In this document: in pieces, positions 5,195 to 39,253 of the stretch
How the letters are laid out: every line of letters begins with the position of its first letter
Position numbering within the stretch: the stretch's first letter is position 1
DNA from: a virus
Taxonomy: Duplodnaviria > Caudoviricetes
Virus record (IMG/VR): IMGVR_UViG_3300031867_000002
Location: 96,001 to 160,000 of that record
Length of the DNA: 64,000 bases
Direction: 5' to 3' (one strand)
Translations under genes and position numbers: made by a program
The notes under the pieces: generated by a model
Seen by the model: the letters and a program-made list of their open reading frames with translations, nothing else
Told to the model about the DNA's origin: nothing
The model's database searches: none

Positions 5195-5683
5195 TCATTC
5201 TGGTTCATTCTCTAAACCTCTAGTTCCAAAGTACTGAAGATAATTTTCCATATTATCATCAAACATTTGAATTCCAATCGGCGAGAATTGACCTTCTACA
5301 AAGTTTTCTGTATCGTCTGGTGTATGAGCCACATTACAAGCATAACCATAAGTTTCCATAATATACTTAATAAGTGTCTCTACTACATTAGATGCTGTCT
5401 CAGTAGAAAAGTCTACAAGTATCCAAACGTTCTTACCATTATAAGCTTCTCTAATAAGATTAATAAACTCTCTAAATGCTTCTGGTGTAGAAGCAAGATA
5501 GTTTACATACCACATATCAAACTCATAACAGTTAGTATTACCATAATATTGATTATTACGATAAGGATTAAGATACATAAGTTGTGGAATACACTCAAGC
5601 ATTGTATTAAAATTTACTATAGAGTTTATAACTACTCTGCTTCTACAATACTTCAGTGCGTCTGGGCTACCGAAGATTATCAT
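5195..5683 (-). CDS. Hypothetical protein, DUF488-like pattern; probable paralog of 5696-6265
   Basis: F..WY..YL....EA...F..L......GKNVWIL pattern; SD present. Confidence 0.4.
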   Translation of the reverse strand: MIIFGSPDALKYCRSRVVINSIVNFNTMLECIPQLMYLNPYRNNQYYGNTNCYEFDMWYVNYLASTPEAFREFINLIREAYNGKNVWILVDFSTETASNVVETLIKYIMETYGYACNVAHTPDDTENFVEGQFSPIGIQMFDDNMENYLQYFGTRGLENEPE

Positions 5684-5695
5684 ATAATCTCCTCC

Positions 5696-6265
5696 TTAAA
5701 ACTGATGAAATACAGATTCTTGAATAATTTGTGCATATCCATTATCATACAGAATATTTAAATTATTCATCATGAATTCTGGCATTACAGATTGATTATA
5801 TAATACGTTAGGATTATTCTGGATGTCTAAAGCACTATAAAATACTAGTCCGAATGCTAATCTAAGATAATTGAATAGAAACGTTACTATAGTTCCCATA
5901 TTTGAATTATTGTCAAAGTCAAAATACAATATATAATCCCAAGATTTTTCCATCAATCCAGCTACGAGTGCAATTATATATTCTACTACATCTTTATCTT
6001 CAGTAAGTTTTGCTTTATAAAGATAATAAAATTGGTCATAATTACCATCTATCAAATAATCCATAGCTCTAGGCGGTGGTAATAAGATAGGCGCACATAA
6101 AAAGTCTTCAATTCCTCTAGGACAAAAATCATCTATAGATATGACTTTGCATTTTGGAGCATCAATTCCTCTACTCTTATATGCAGCTACTTTAGTATTC
6201 ATTCTTGTTTGTAGAATGAAAGTTAACTCGTTAGGGTTTGTTGCAAATGAAATGTTTCCAATCAT
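5696..6265 (-). CDS. Hypothetical protein, DUF488-like pattern
   Basis: LLPP...F...YKAKL...V.EYI..L pattern; start placed at ATG 6265 after GGAGG. Confidence 0.4.
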   Translation of the reverse strand: MIGNISFATNPNELTFILQTRMNTKVAAYKSRGIDAPKCKVISIDDFCPRGIEDFLCAPILLPPPRAMDYLIDGNYDQFYYLYKAKLTEDKDVVEYIIALVAGLMEKSWDYILYFDFDNNSNMGTIVTFLFNYLRLAFGLVFYSALDIQNNPNVLYNQSVMPEFMMNNLNILYDNGYAQIIQESVFHQF

Positions 6266-14963: not shown

Positions 14964-16424
14964 TTATAAGTTAGCTATAGAGTTAAGCATACTTTCATTA
15001 ATTTCATATATGCTATTAACTCCTTTAGTTCTTTTACATGTAAGTTTGTTATAAGCAAAATATTTACCGTTTAGACTTTGTAGAATAGTTAAATCTTCAT
15101 ACTCTCTTAAAAGTTTCTTTTTGTATTCATACTTAACAGGGTCAAGTATATTAAATACAATAGGTTTAACTCCTTCTAAAATAGCTTCAGATTGAAATTG
15201 TAGAGTCGCTAAACTACTATTAAAGTTTTCATGGATTTGTTCCATATCAACCACTTCAAGTAATGTACTAAACTCTAATTGGTCATCTGATAACACTTCA
15301 CTAAATTCCGTAACTAAACAAGGTAGATATTGATAATCTACATATTGTTCAGTTTTATATTTATGATAAACCTCTTTCAATATATTAGCTATGTTTTCAC
15401 CTTTATATTTATAAGTGGTGAATTCACATTCATCTAGTAAATCTTTTGTTTTTTTCTTTTTAAGTTTACCAGATTCTTTATCTCTAGTAATCATGTATTC
15501 AGAAGTAATATCGTTAGATAATGCAAATCCAGATTCAAATGTATTTTTATCCATGTAGTTTGTTATAAATACACTAGGAGACATATCTGTTCCTACTGCT
15601 GGCATACCACCTATACTAGCTGGACCTGTATGCTCATGAACTCTAGAAATAGTCTTTGGTTCAGTATCATTCATATAAGATTCTTTAAGCTCAGCAAACA
15701 TAGTAAGCAACTGTACAAACTCGTTATTAGTAAGTCTAATATAATTATACTCACCTTGGTCTGTAATAAATTTTTCTTTCTCTAATTGTTTTGCTCTATA
15801 TTCAGGCATCTCACGATTATTCTTATTATCTCCACCATCTTTAATATCAAATACAAGATTATAAGGTAAATAAATAGCATCTGTAATCCAAGTATGTTCT
15901 TTGCCTTCAAACTCATAATAGATAGTAGGACCAGGAGTTAATAAGTCTTCAGAATTAATCTTCAATACATTATCACAAAACTCTAAGAACTTCTTTTCAT
16001 AACTTCCAACATAAGTTTTGTATGTTCCGTCAGACCATCTGTATTTACCAGATATACTTCTGTTAGCAAGCATTTTTTGTTCTTGCCATTCCATATCATC
16101 AAGTAGAGTAGTTTTACCGTATACTCTAAGCATATTGTTTTTATAGTTTTCTCTAGCTTGTTGTTTACATTTTTCAGAACAATAAGATTTATATCGCACA
16201 GAATTCTCGTCCCACTCAGTAGGTTTCTTACAAATACGACATACACCCTGTCCTGCTCCGATTGGTTCTTTATTATTACAAATGTCGAATACAATTCTAT
16301 TTGCAGTATATCCTTTATCAGGATTTAACATGTCATCATGATGTTTATCAATATGACTAGCTAACTTAGGTCTTTCAAAAGATTTACTACAAAATGGACA
16401 CTTATACTTTCTTACTGAAGCCAT
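14964..16424 (-). CDS. Zn-finger + TnsA/T4 gp4-like PD-(D/E)XK nuclease
   Basis: C2H2 finger (CPFC..HIDKHH), CRIC..C..C, YVGSYEKKFLEFCD, IYYEFEGKEHTWITD, FDIKDG. Confidence 0.65.
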   Translation of the reverse strand: MASVRKYKCPFCSKSFERPKLASHIDKHHDDMLNPDKGYTANRIVFDICNNKEPIGAGQGVCRICKKPTEWDENSVRYKSYCSEKCKQQARENYKNNMLRVYGKTTLLDDMEWQEQKMLANRSISGKYRWSDGTYKTYVGSYEKKFLEFCDNVLKINSEDLLTPGPTIYYEFEGKEHTWITDAIYLPYNLVFDIKDGGDNKNNREMPEYRAKQLEKEKFITDQGEYNYIRLTNNEFVQLLTMFAELKESYMNDTEPKTISRVHEHTGPASIGGMPAVGTDMSPSVFITNYMDKNTFESGFALSNDITSEYMITRDKESGKLKKKKTKDLLDECEFTTYKYKGENIANILKEVYHKYKTEQYVDYQYLPCLVTEFSEVLSDDQLEFSTLLEVVDMEQIHENFNSSLATLQFQSEAILEGVKPIVFNILDPVKYEYKKKLLREYEDLTILQSLNGKYFAYNKLTCKRTKGVNSIYEINESMLNSIANL

Positions 16425-16522
16425 AACAGTCCTCCTTTCATAGTATTATATCAATGTTCTGGAAATCAAATATAATGAGATTGTAAAAGTTTAATATTTT
16501 GTATATATATAATATAAGTGAA

Positions 16523-16720
16523 TAAGAGATAATATCAAATCGATAGCCGTCACTATCGACCACTCATATTATCTCTTAGTGGACTCTCGGTAGAGGCTTA
16601 GCGACAGCCATACTACACTAAAAGTACCGAGATTATCCAAGAGGAGTTGCGTCCTTAGGTTTCTGGAATATCCTTTAAAACCAGAGCAACTATCTATGTT
16701 CCTGAAAATTCATGGAACAA
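16523..16720 (+). ncRNA. Putative structured RNA / 5' leader with four stem-loop domains
   Basis: Perfect 13-bp stem 16523-16535/16566-16578 enclosing TCGATAG/CTATCGA; TCTCGGTA/TACCGAGA; AGTTGC/GCAACT; TGTTCC/GGAACA; follows an early-type promoter. Confidence 0.5.
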
Positions 16721-16747
16721 ATTTTATCTATAAGGAGTCATTTAATC

Positions 16748-17377
16748 ATGGCTGAAACAATGAATGTAGTAGTAAAAGAAATCGTTATCCGTAACTGTGT
16801 TAAGCAGATTTATGTTGCTAATGGTATGATTTACAATATCATTGGTCATGGAGAGTTTGCAGCTGCTCAGCTTACACCCGAAGGCGAAGCAACCGAAGTA
16901 GAGCTCTATAATGCTCTCGGTCCTGATGATATCGAAAGATGGCCTCTGGCAGCTAGTCTCGGTCAGATGGCGGATTTCACACTCGTTGGTGAATCTGAAA
17001 AAGTTACTGATAATACAGAAGAAGTACAGAATAATGAAAATATTGGCTTTGGCACTGCAGCGTATAAAGTCGATAACAGCAGCTTTGATGAAGTTGTGGA
17101 ATACCTGACACATCTCAAGGGTGAAGATTTCTTAAAGTTTGTGTATTATGCAAAAACACACGATAATAATTTTCCCCGTTATATAGATGTGTTTGCAAAC
17201 ATTATTAATGCAGATGATGCGTATTGCACAGCGATTATTAAGCTGACACGTCATCTTGGCGAAGCAGTTGAAAAAAGAGCCTTCGAACTCTTCGATGCAG
17301 CTGCGGATGATAAAATATACGAAGCAAACGTCTTTTTCAATTTCTGGAAAGCACTCCAGGTAATCAACTTCTGCTAA
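16748..17377 (+). CDS. Hypothetical protein (209 aa)
   Basis: SD AAGGAG before ATG 16748; lone + strand gene that looks more GC-rich than its neighbours. Confidence 0.7.
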   Translation: MAETMNVVVKEIVIRNCVKQIYVANGMIYNIIGHGEFAAAQLTPEGEATEVELYNALGPDDIERWPLAASLGQMADFTLVGESEKVTDNTEEVQNNENIGFGTAAYKVDNSSFDEVVEYLTHLKGEDFLKFVYYAKTHDNNFPRYIDVFANIINADDAYCTAIIKLTRHLGEAVEKRAFELFDAAADDKIYEANVFFNFWKALQVINFC

Positions 17378-17442
17378 TAACACAACAGTATTATTTTGAC
17401 AATTGAATAATCAGCTAGATGACTTAAGTCATTAGTAGTTGG

Positions 17443-17479
17443 AAAAGAACGGACTCATTAAGAGTCCGTTCTTTTTTTT
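17443..17479. terminator. Bidirectional intrinsic terminator
   Basis: AAAAGAACGGACTC-attaa-GAGTCCGTTCTTTT between convergent genes. Confidence 0.85.
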
Positions 17480-17482
17480 ATA

Positions 17483-19177
17483 TTAATAATTATTCATGTT
17501 AATTGTAGGAAGGATAAACTGGTTTGCTGTTACCATGATTGTAATAATTTTAGAGATTGTATCAATAATACAAATGTCTGTATCAATACTAGAAAGTACT
17601 TTACCATCATATTTTCCAGTAGTAATATTGTAAGGGCAATCATGAGTAATACAATCGTGAATAATCGTATTAGAATCGATTTCACCTACAGTATCATAGA
17701 GTTCGGTCATGATTTCATAATATGAAGATTTAATTATATCTGCAATATCTCCAGCCATACTATTTTCAAGTTCTTCAGATGCTAAAATAGAAGCTTTATA
17801 TCCTTCAAAGTTAGCTGCATATCCTACACCATTAAGTGCTGCAGAACGACAATTGAGTACTGCATCTTCAAGTAAATCACGCTCTGCATCACGGTCTGCC
17901 ACGGTAACACCACCGATATAGATTTCTACCATCTTACCTTTAAGAGAATTAAGACGTTTTTTAAGGGTATAGATTTCTGTAGTAGTATTACCTTCTATAT
18001 TAAGTTTATCAATCTGTTTCTGAAGATAATCTGTTCTTTGTTTAAAGAGAGAAGAATATTCTCCTTTTACATTAAACATTTTAAACGGATTTACAAATGT
18101 AGTTTTATATGCATCGCTAGATACTAGTTCTGCTTCACCAGCAAATGTATCAATATTATCTGGAGTAGGAGCTAAACCAGATTCAATATCTTTTTTTTGA
18201 ATTTCTGGGTCAAGATATTTCTTGATATACTTACAACCACAAAGGTCACAAATATCTTCAAACTGTTCCATATCACAACCTTGAATATCGGTAATAATGT
18301 TCAAAATACCACGATTAGCTGCAGGAACATTTGCAATAGACTCCATAAGAGTATCCATATATGCAGAATAATCTCTAGAAATTCTAGGAGCCATAATTAC
18401 AGTAGGAACTACTTCTTCTGGTTTCTTTTCACTAATAGGTTTGAGAATATTCTTTACAAGAATAATGTCCAAGAACATACCCATCTCTGCAGTATCAATA
18501 GGGTCTTTAAATGCATAAATTTTAGGATTCTTAATATCAACTGTATTTTTCACTGTATCGTTAATCAATGTAGGGTCAAGGAATCCACATTCCATAGTCA
18601 TACCATTGATTTCTTTAAGATAAGTTGTACCATTCATAGATGCTTTTACATCAATATACACATCAAGTCCATATTCTTTATATACATTATTAAGAATCTT
18701 AGCTAGTTCTTCATCACCATTTGTAGCGATAAGAGCTATATCATACATATCTTCAATAGTAGCTAGTCTACCATTTAATTCGATATTTTTCTTAATAACT
18801 TCTGCTGTTTTCTTGAACGCTTTTACTAATGATACTGGAGTAAAATTATGTTCAGCTTCGTATGCAGACAGTCTATTAAAAATAAGAGAAGATAAGATAG
18901 TAATACTAGTTGTAGAATCGCCAACTTTTTGAGCCTGTGTACGAGTCTCTTCTTCAATATCAGCATGTACAGCTTTTGCAATCGGGTCTACAAATTGAAG
19001 GTGAGAAAGAATAGTATGACCGTCTTTGGTATATCTAGAAAGTGCACCATCTTTACCAATAATAGAATTAGAACCATAAGGACCAAATGACTTTACTAAT
19101 GCATCTGATAAAATACTCATTGTTTCTAATTGAACTTTTCTAAGAGCTTCTTTTCCAACAATATTTGAATAAACCAT
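17483..19177 (-). CDS. Phage GroEL-like chaperonin
   Basis: SFGPYG, YTKDGHTIL, VGDSTTS (GDGTTT variant), IYIGG...EDAV; 564 aa. Confidence 0.9.
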   Translation of the reverse strand: MVYSNIVGKEALRKVQLETMSILSDALVKSFGPYGSNSIIGKDGALSRYTKDGHTILSHLQFVDPIAKAVHADIEEETRTQAQKVGDSTTSITILSSLIFNRLSAYEAEHNFTPVSLVKAFKKTAEVIKKNIELNGRLATIEDMYDIALIATNGDEELAKILNNVYKEYGLDVYIDVKASMNGTTYLKEINGMTMECGFLDPTLINDTVKNTVDIKNPKIYAFKDPIDTAEMGMFLDIILVKNILKPISEKKPEEVVPTVIMAPRISRDYSAYMDTLMESIANVPAANRGILNIITDIQGCDMEQFEDICDLCGCKYIKKYLDPEIQKKDIESGLAPTPDNIDTFAGEAELVSSDAYKTTFVNPFKMFNVKGEYSSLFKQRTDYLQKQIDKLNIEGNTTTEIYTLKKRLNSLKGKMVEIYIGGVTVADRDAERDLLEDAVLNCRSAALNGVGYAANFEGYKASILASEELENSMAGDIADIIKSSYYEIMTELYDTVGEIDSNTIIHDCITHDCPYNITTGKYDGKVLSSIDTDICIIDTISKIITIMVTANQFILPTINMNNY

Positions 19178-38473: not shown

Positions 38474-39253
38474 TTACACACAATACATTAATGGCTGATT
38501 TTTATTTGCGGCTCCAACATATGCTTCTTTAAGTTCTCCGATATAGTCTTCTCTTCTTCCAGCCCAGTTTTCAAGGAAAGATAATTTAAGGTCTACTCCA
38601 GCAAACACTGTTTCAAGTCCATCATAGTGTTGTAAGTATGCTACTAAGAAAGATGCTACATCTGTAGTAGCAAGATTCTCAAATACACCCATCATTGTAC
38701 CAGGTATAGTCATTAGATTAGCTGGATGACATACAAATACATCTAATGGAATACTACCAAGACCACCAGTAATATCACCATGAGTAACACTTTGTAAACG
38801 AATCATATTAGGCTCTTTAAAGTCAACAAAGATTGTATTATTAAAGATAGATGTCATATCGGCACGAGCCTGAAGCAGCATTACGTCATCCATACTATAG
38901 TTATTATATGCCGACATATAATCATAGTAACCTATCCCGCTTTGCTGAGCTAAACCACCATCTTCTTGACCATAAGTAGTCCAGTCTATATCTTTTACAC
39001 CTAAGATATCTTGACCACCAACTAATGCGTTATCAATTATGAAGTATCCATCTTTCTTCTTAGATTTATCATTAGTATCAATCTTAATTCTCACCATATG
39101 AGGAAAGTAACGACTGAATGTAAGTAATGTATCTGGAATAATAGTCTCTTCAACCCACTTATCTTTAGAAATATCGTCAGGAAGCATTAATGGCTTCGTA
39201 CCTAAACGACGTTCAATTTTATTAAGTAGGAGATTCATTTTATTAATAGGCAT
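38474..39253 (-). CDS. Hypothetical protein, possibly neck/head-completion structural protein
   Basis: Late-type promoter 39271-39283; KIERRLG N-terminus; function inferred only loosely. Confidence 0.45.
   Translation of the reverse strand: MPINKMNLLLNKIERRLGTKPLMLPDDISKDKWVEETIIPDTLLTFSRYFPHMVRIKIDTNDKSKKKDGYFIIDNALVGGQDILGVKDIDWTTYGQEDGGLAQQSGIGYYDYMSAYNNYSMDDVMLLQARADMTSIFNNTIFVDFKEPNMIRLQSVTHGDITGGLGSIPLDVFVCHPANLMTIPGTMMGVFENLATTDVASFLVAYLQHYDGLETVFAGVDLKLSFLENWAGRREDYIGELKEAYVGAANKNQPLMYCV

Follow-up and report, generated by a model that had tools for sequence, protein, structure and literature searches.

A putative new family of structured leader RNAs upstream of a predicted early gene of a rumen jumbo phage

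Jumbo phages of the AR9 and phiKZ type transcribe their early genes with an injected RNA polymerase (RNAP); how the messages are stabilized, timed and shut off is largely unknown. Early promoters of AR9 are given as AAATATATATTAT-N6-G(+1), with G or A at +1, and its early mRNAs as having 5' untranslated regions (UTRs) of up to 340 nucleotides (nt), with unexplained motifs reported within them (PMC5312081, text and Table S2). According to the same text, many AR9 early promoters carry an upstream box, ...ccgtattaaaa, near –39 to –29, ending ...GTATTAAAA, and the late promoter is AACA-N6-TA (PMC5312081). Here we describe a predicted early cassette, comprising a structured leader RNA of 228 nt and an open reading frame (ORF) of 209 amino acids (aa), in bases 96001–160000 of the IMG/VR record IMGVR_UViG_3300031867_000002 (this stretch of 64,000 nt is referred to as the window, and positions are counted from its first letter). 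The record, of 224,632 bp with direct terminal repeats and a GC content of 31.7%, comes from an uncultivated rumen phage, whose large terminase is ~35% identical to those of the Bacillus jumbo phages BpSp, AR9 and PBS1 and ~31% identical to that of Staphylococcus phage S6. Judged by sequence, this is an AR9/PBS1-like jumbo phage, and its host is probably a Firmicute. In our reading, to which we give a probability of roughly 0.55, the element is a cis-acting 5' leader of an early mRNA of this phage, setting the stability or the translation of the message.

Fold and conservation of the leader

The leader has a minimum free energy (MFE) of –66 kcal/mol, compared to –44 ± 4.5 kcal/mol for dinucleotide shuffles (z = –4.9, none of 200 shuffles being as good), and, with its homologs, a GC content of 38–42%, well above that of the genome. 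Thirteen distinct homologous leaders were obtained from the contigs of ten close homologs of the 209-aa protein and via pattern scans, and two of them come from G001 (223.5 kb) and G004, which are also complete genomes or large contigs (G000 denotes the window's own genome, G001–G004, related genomes, and L numbers, stretches of relatives or of the same genome). A covariance model, R1, was built from six sequences with a hand-drawn structure, and all 13 leaders were then aligned to it. Standard pairs occupy 99.2% of the 593 pair cells, and 16 out of 53 pairs are changed on both sides (69 cells). When the 3' partners are slid by one to three columns as a control, just 38–47% of cells remain paired, with none or one doubly changed pair, and column shuffling does not reach the observed covariation score in any of 500 trials.

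The changes are distributed unevenly, P1 and the GGA/TCC base of P2 barely varying at all (Table 1). Helix variants are found in different combinations in different phages (e.g., L005, L019, L006, and L004), which means that the changes were not inherited as a single block. G-U pairs that are conserved, such as 158–183 (UG in 12 of the 13 leaders) and 156–191 (GU in 11), would be A-C mismatches on the opposite strand, so that the structure belongs to the RNA of the + strand. By all these comparative signs, the leader structure is real, selected and strand-specific. Moreover, with the window as the reference, nucleotide identity to the relatives is 77–92% in the aligned positions of the leader and 81–85% in the flanking endonuclease and chaperonin genes, and only 60–73% in the 209-aa ORF; therefore, the noncoding RNA is constrained like the core genes, while its cargo evolves fast.

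Scanning the whole window with Rfam 15 at the gathering threshold yields no matches. At E <= 10, in positions 16400–17520, no + strand match falls on the leader, two weak – strand matches overlap it (E 2.1 and 8.8), and the remaining ones owe their scores to the 3' terminator. As far as Rfam allows one to judge, the leader is a new RNA family of no known type. The R1 search finds one copy each in G000, G001 and G004, and no match in G002 and G003 (complete genomes of more distant phages), in other leaders of the phage's own genome (L002) or in L034–L036; the family is restricted to a clade with chaperonin genes ~80% identical to that of the window at the nucleotide level. Pattern scans of metagenome, viral and bacterial-genome collections yielded two more leaders, IMG/VR stretches L013 and L014, each present in two collections, and no host-genome copy; the matches L015 and L031–L033 from these scans were discarded as chance ones.

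Table 1. Features of the cassette, its neighbors and related leaders (positions in the window unless a contig is named).
Feature	Position	Strand	Basis
AR9-type early (virion-RNAP-type) promoter	16481–16513	+	sequence, AR9 consensus, genome motif enrichment, invariance in relatives
Structured 5' leader RNA, 228 nt	16520–16747	+	folding z-score, 13-leader alignment, no Rfam match
P1, 12–13-bp 5'-terminal stem	16523–16534 with 16567–16578 (domain 16523–16578)	+	almost invariant
P1a, variable 7-bp hairpin inside P1	16540–16546 with 16553–16559	+	double changes in 4/5 pairs
P2 domain (GGA/TCC base, 8-bp P2, P2a)	16581–16638; P2 16585–16592 with 16625–16632	+	covariation
P2a, GGCT/AGCC, loop TRGCGAM	16595–16598 with 16606–16609	+	double changes in 3/4 pairs, 97.7% of cells paired
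P3 hairpin, AGGA/TCCT	16642–16655	+	double changes in 2/4 pairs (AGGA/TCCT vs AAGC/GCTT)
P4, outer TAGGT/ATCTA, inner TTCTGG/CCAGAG	16656–16696	+	inner P4, double changes in 2/6 pairs
P5 hairpin, TGTTCC/GGAACA	16697–16719	+	double change in 1/6 pairs, 2 one-sided
Shine–Dalgarno sequence AAGGAG and weak hairpin AGTCAT/ATGGCT over the start codon	16732–16737; hairpin 16736–16753	+	folding of 13 homologs
ORF of acidic two-domain 209-aa protein	16748–17377	+	translation, homologs, predicted structure
Conserved 3' UTR hairpin, outer CAGCTA/TAGTTG	17412–17441	+	all cells paired; double changes in 2 pairs, one-sided in 3
Bidirectional intrinsic terminator, common to the convergent chaperonin gene	17441–17479	.	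stem and U tract
Zn-finger endonuclease gene	14964–16424	–	phrog_15137
GroEL-like chaperonin gene	17483–19177	–	PF00118, phrog_5725
Long early leader modules	G000:C1 38604–38800 (L002 1478–1672); 81640–81790 (L037); 86173–86390 (L038); window 16481–16747		

Among the helices, P2 has changes on both sides in four of its eight pairs, with 100% of cells paired, and P1a is missing in L006. The near-invariant unpaired segments are ATACTACA (the invariant 3' internal loop of the P2 domain), TATCCAAGA, TTGC (invariant, in the P3 loop), AATAKCCYTTAAAA (the 14-nt loop of P4), and GCA. The distal part of P2 has an alternative register, in which invariant GUAG pairs with invariant CUAC; the 8-bp register is preferred here because of three compensatory pairs, and a switch between the two is possible. 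The UUGC of the P3 loop is complementary to GCAA of the P4 internal loop, both segments being invariant, and these two may form a tertiary contact. Pairing between the 5' and 3' UTRs amounts to just 5 bp (ACUAC with GUAGU). An upstream ORF starting from the ATG within CTATG was considered and rejected: it opens unrelated frames of 8–19 codons, and the motif reads CTACG in two sister leaders.

A preliminary description of this DNA, made from the sequence alone, drew four stem-loops here. P1, of 13 bp with a nested 7-bp hairpin, and P2, of 8 bp with nested GGCT/AGCC, are retained in our model, while the two further stems have become three (P3, P4, and P5). Its suggestion of an unrecognized leader agrees well with the conserved fold and the compensatory, strand-specific changes in the homologs, with the lack of a match to known Rfam families, and with the position between the predicted start and the Shine–Dalgarno sequence, no terminator intervening.

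For P4, two pairings compete. The partner of AGG (16657–16659) may be either ATCTA on the 3' side, as in outer P4, or CCT (16672–16674) in the P4 loop; the second choice creates a pseudoknot of the H type whose third loop is rich in A. This topology is compatible with AGG/CCU pairing (in other variants, GGG/CCC) plus a second stem of 6 bp, and one pair covaries (A-U in seven sequences, G-C in five); outer P4 shows only one-sided, pairing-preserving changes and also fits the data. The P4 region may work like a small pseudoknot aptamer. Its layout (a stem, a loop strand, an A-rich stretch and a complementary 3' strand) presumably resembles the scaffold of preQ1-I riboswitches (RF00522), as the region can be drawn as an H-type fold with a short stem 1 and a loop strand pairing with the 3' strand past the A-rich stretch; we also take the strings GGUUNCUAG ... 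CCC ... AAAACUAG to be like those of the Bacillus subtilis queC preQ1 aptamer. In preQ1-I, the ligand pairs with an invariant cytidine that immediately precedes the 3' strand of stem 1. At this position (alignment column 168) 12 sequences have G and the window has U. Unlike preQ1-I, stem 2 is of 6 bp and stem 1 of only 3 bp, the region is embedded in a 228-nt RNA, and the downstream gene belongs to no family of queuosine synthesis or transport. The Rfam PreQ1 model does not match positions 16640–16715 of the window or 215–295 of L010 (76–81 nt; E <= 10, lax filters). Given the lack of an Rfam match, of the ligand-pairing cytidine and of a queuosine gene context, we rejected the identification of P4 as a preQ1-I riboswitch.

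Promoter, translation initiation region and 3' end

The promoter consists of two parts, the upstream box TTGTAAAA at 16481–16488 (–39 to –32 relative to G16520) and the AT-rich core GTATATATATAAT at 16501–16513, followed by ATAAGT and then by G16520. The core matches the AR9 early consensus at 10 of 13 positions, and from the AR9 promoter layout transcription is predicted to start at G16520. The strict two-part motif occurs five times in the 224.6-kb genome, compared to 0–1 occurrences (~0.1 expected) in 20 Markov-1 simulations; a looser pattern retrieves about a dozen plausible early promoters, and the leader studied here is the longest among theirs. Both boxes are invariant in the relatives, and a sigma-70 scan detects no + strand promoter at this site. 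A promoter of the AR9 early type would be expected to be active at the onset of infection and without protein synthesis.

On the opposite strand, upstream of the endonuclease gene, AACATTGATATAA at 16446–16458 fits the AR9 late promoter (here AACA-N6-TAA), so that the early cassette and a late-type promoter point away from each other. The 95 nt of promoter region separating the two are 86–97% identical in the relatives, above the level of the genes.

The predicted start, the leader, the Shine–Dalgarno sequence and the ATG are contiguous. The terminator scan finds nothing between P5 and the ORF, the only terminator-like site following the ORF. In 12 of the 13 homologs, the 3'-most bases of the Shine–Dalgarno sequence and those after it form a weak hairpin (–4.2 to –5.6 kcal/mol) with the AUG and the second codon, and in L013 the hairpin covers the Shine–Dalgarno sequence instead of the AUG; the probability of an unpaired AUG is low in most homologs. 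The 5' strand of P5 (UGUUCCU or UGCUCCU) is complementary to the Shine–Dalgarno sequence and is normally held by its own P5 partner, so that this strand and the Shine–Dalgarno sequence could conceivably serve as an expression platform.

The 3' UTR is also strongly structured, its MFE being –35.2 against –14.3 (z = –7.9). In its hairpin the outer stem and the flanks are kept, whereas the inner stem occurs in three different sequences. The hairpin is deleted in L019; identity of the 3' UTR to the relatives is 84–90% where it is kept, and 75% in L019. The terminator, a stem of 16 pairs (17441–17477) followed by T8, is conserved with compensatory changes. The box TTGA(C/A)AATT(G/T)AATA (17396–17411), immediately 5' of the hairpin and kept in all hairpin-bearing relatives, resembles the upstream box of the early promoter, with no AT-rich core after it.

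All features listed in the preliminary description (the promoter, the stems, the Shine–Dalgarno sequence, the ORF, the 3' hairpin, and the terminator) are found at or near the places given there: AAGGAG precedes the ATG at 16748, the 3' hairpin lies exactly at 17412–17441 and is followed by the terminator stem with its T8, and the early-type promoter turns out to be an AR9-type two-part motif, correctly spaced and enriched in the genome.

Exchange of leaders between genes, and the 209-aa protein

The cassette is located on the + strand, between the endonuclease and chaperonin genes, both on the – strand, and this order is kept in the relatives wherever the contig is long enough. The phage chaperonin, with 67–84% protein identity across the phage group, is a good anchor for locating relatives. 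No DNA or protein match to the cassette or to the 209-aa protein was found among 50,697 phage records, and a scan for tRNA and tmRNA genes gave none.

Leaders and genes are combined differently in different phages. In L035 (2355–2503) the homologous protein P0021 is encoded at the same syntenic site behind a different leader of 105 nt, which is homologous along its length to the 81.6-kb leader of G000, and the latter precedes an unrelated gene; therefore, leaders have been swapped between cargo genes. At this locus in L021, an unrelated 88-aa ORF is preceded by another leader, identical in its first bases, and L023 has two other early cassettes. Four long early leaders of the genome (Table 1), all preceding unrelated proteins, begin with GAAUA(A)GA and contain the box CUAYGUUCC. 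The box (CTAYGTTCC in DNA) is found in G000 at 38695, ~81.7 kb, ~86.2 kb and 112694, just 3' of a helix and from about 50 to over 100 nt before the AUG, and the 5' strand of P5 is a part of it. The shared start and box may point to control of the early genes by a common post-transcriptional mechanism. Because homologous proteins follow different leaders in the relatives, and leaders of one type precede unrelated proteins, the sequence comparison favors an exchangeable module with common functional ends over a dedicated partner of the protein.

Most early leaders of the genome begin with a hairpin at +1 to +4. In the short early leaders at G000:C1 15822, 139724, 156150, and 187281 (all on the – strand) it starts right at +1, and in two of these it pairs AGAGGU with ACCUCU directly before the Shine–Dalgarno sequence GGAGG, an anti-Shine–Dalgarno-like strand being held by a Shine–Dalgarno-like decoy, the same logic as in P5.

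The ORF, an orphan in the preliminary description, is indeed opposed to both neighbors and has no match in Pfam, PHROGs or PADLOC, yet it does not stand alone: there are 10 close homologs, 40–84% identical to it, and 36 cluster representatives in metagenomes at E <= 0.001. The protein has an isoelectric point (pI) of about 4.5, and the family is acidic throughout (pI 4.2–5.0). A beta-rich N domain (residues 1–76) is followed by a disordered acidic linker of variable length and by a C domain of five helices; the latter is confidently modeled, with a predicted local distance difference test score (pLDDT) of 94, compared to 73 for the full model. Foldseek searches of PDB, BFVD, VIA wide and Atlas with the full model and the C domain gave best Z of 4.5–5.2 and template modeling scores of ~0.5 or lower, which we discount, since such scores are within the noise for helical bundles. 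The invariant signature N...NADDxYC(S/T)A (residues 140–160) lies within this predicted bundle without structural relatives, possibly a novel domain among the early proteins of jumbo phages. In L021, at 5278–5998 of the – strand, the C-terminal helical domain is encoded by a stand-alone gene of 112 aa with its own promoter, after the 88-aa early gene; the L021 chaperonin is 69% identical at the protein level, and the cassette is here split or recombined. No relation of the N domain to the 88-aa (L021) and 130-aa (L023) cargo proteins is detected by hhalign. The N domain is truncated in several homologs, with the leader unchanged. Early, acidic and fast-evolving, the protein could be of the kind typical of host-takeover or counter-defense factors.

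Function of the leader and comparison with known systems

If the element is a cis-acting leader, transcription would start from the virion-RNAP-type promoter at G16520 and run through the 209-aa ORF to the terminator at 17441–17479. P1, only 3 nt from the 5' end, would protect the transcript from 5'-end-dependent decay, and the compact P2–P4 core, P5 and the weak AUG hairpin would set the amount and timing of translation, either constitutively or in response to a phage or host factor recognizing the CUAYGUUCC box. Several points weigh against this reading. The start site, co-transcription and any regulation are inferred; the counts of paired cells come from an alignment fitted to the model; all 13 leaders belong to one narrow clade, so that independent changes are few; and P1, the proposed protective stem, being nearly invariant, is outside the reach of covariation. 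Moreover, five helices, a near-invariant loop of 14 nt and invariant junctions would exceed the needs of a plain stabilizer or translation tuner, such complexity being more typical of RNAs that bind ligands or proteins.

The latter consideration suggests a riboswitch-like sensor, with a small molecule bound by the P2–P4 core and P4 toggling between the extended hairpin and the H-type pseudoknot, so that the pairing of the UGUUCC strand, with its P5 decoy or with the Shine–Dalgarno sequence, is altered. The architecture of several helices, in which stems covary and unpaired nucleotides are invariant, the covarying pseudoknot pair, the presumed likeness of P4 to the preQ1-I scaffold, the complementarity of the P5 strand to the Shine–Dalgarno sequence, and the uninterrupted run of the leader into the ORF are all consistent with it. 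However, no Rfam riboswitch model matches, PreQ1 included, and the position of the preQ1-pairing cytidine is taken by other nucleotides; nothing connects the downstream gene with metabolism or transport; the RNA occurs in one copy per genome in one narrow phage clade; the same gene family stands behind a different leader in L035; and the pseudoknot covariation may reflect the linkage of two sites 17 nt apart. We consider a sensor of this kind unlikely; of the riboswitch or leader proposed in the preliminary description, the leader is retained and the riboswitch is only possible, given the lack of a ligand-related gene context and the narrow distribution. A similarly low probability is assigned to a stable noncoding RNA, whole or processed, that would act in trans by binding proteins or as a decoy or sponge, with the ORF merely sharing its promoter. 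It would account for the conservation of the RNA independently of the fast-evolving ORF, for its compact architecture and elevated GC content, and for the different cargo that distant relatives place after leaders with the same start, but not for the conserved spacing of P5, the Shine–Dalgarno sequence and the AUG or for the conserved AUG-covering hairpin, which point to a role in translation; there is also no terminator or obvious processing signal between P5 and the Shine–Dalgarno sequence, and no target complementarity was identified.

Far less probable is a specific RNA–protein pair, also suggested in the preliminary description, in which the 209-aa protein would bind its own leader, for autoregulation or in an antitoxin- or guide-like ribonucleoprotein. 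Only adjacency and the shared transcription unit speak for it. All family members are acidic, and neither a family nor a fold of RNA-binding proteins was detected; conservation of the leader contrasts with the fast divergence of the protein, and the leader is unchanged where the N domain is truncated; the L035 homolog uses another leader; type III toxin–antitoxin (ToxIN-like) systems have arrays of short tandem repeats, such as those of ToxI, ahead of an endoribonuclease toxin, and no tandem repeats occur at 16400–17520; and there is no match to defense-system families. This suggestion is accordingly abandoned. As for chance hairpins, or a DNA-level element devoid of RNA function, AT-rich phage DNA does form many hairpins, and covariation is uninformative for the invariant P1, but the folding z-score, the 16 compensatory pairs, the conserved G-U pairs, and the conservation equal to that of core genes leave this explanation with a negligible probability.

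Returning to the cis-acting leader, a bolder extension, which we regard as speculative and rather improbable, would make the P2–P4 core a new aptamer or factor-binding domain with a retuned preQ1-I-like pseudoknot, gating an early host-takeover or anti-defense protein, and would make the shared start and box the marks of a phage-wide regulon of exchangeable leaders on virion-RNAP transcripts. The locus offers a covariation-backed case of a 228-nt fold of no known family, which is conserved at the level of core genes and precedes a quickly evolving accessory gene, in a genome where such leaders are seen to be shuffled as modules from gene to gene. Should the core prove to bind a ligand or a factor, phages would have a new class of regulatory RNAs; otherwise, the leader still provides a defined model of how early mRNAs are designed in jumbo phages that are uncultivated.

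Among known systems, phage translational operators, such as the MS2 replicase operator and the T4 RegA and gene 32 sites, are similar in that the hairpin here includes the start codon and a box is common to several early leaders, as would be expected for a common regulator. On the other hand, the hairpin is weak (–4 to –6 kcal/mol), the box is well upstream of the AUG, and the regulator itself would be hypothetical. The 5' stabilizers of Firmicutes and their phages, e.g., those of ermC, aprE and the phage SP82 early RNA, are single hairpins or Shine–Dalgarno-like sites; here, too, a stable stem lies within a few nucleotides of the predicted 5' end of an early phage mRNA, but such stabilizers leave the conserved P2–P4 core unexplained. 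The long 5' UTRs of AR9 early mRNAs differ in that the cassette has no sequence similarity to any cultured phage searched, and in that a multi-helix fold with covariation is observed here, while the text of PMC5312081 describes no UTR structure. At the same time, they are the closest in context, as both phages belong to the same group by their terminases and have the same two types of promoters, early and late.

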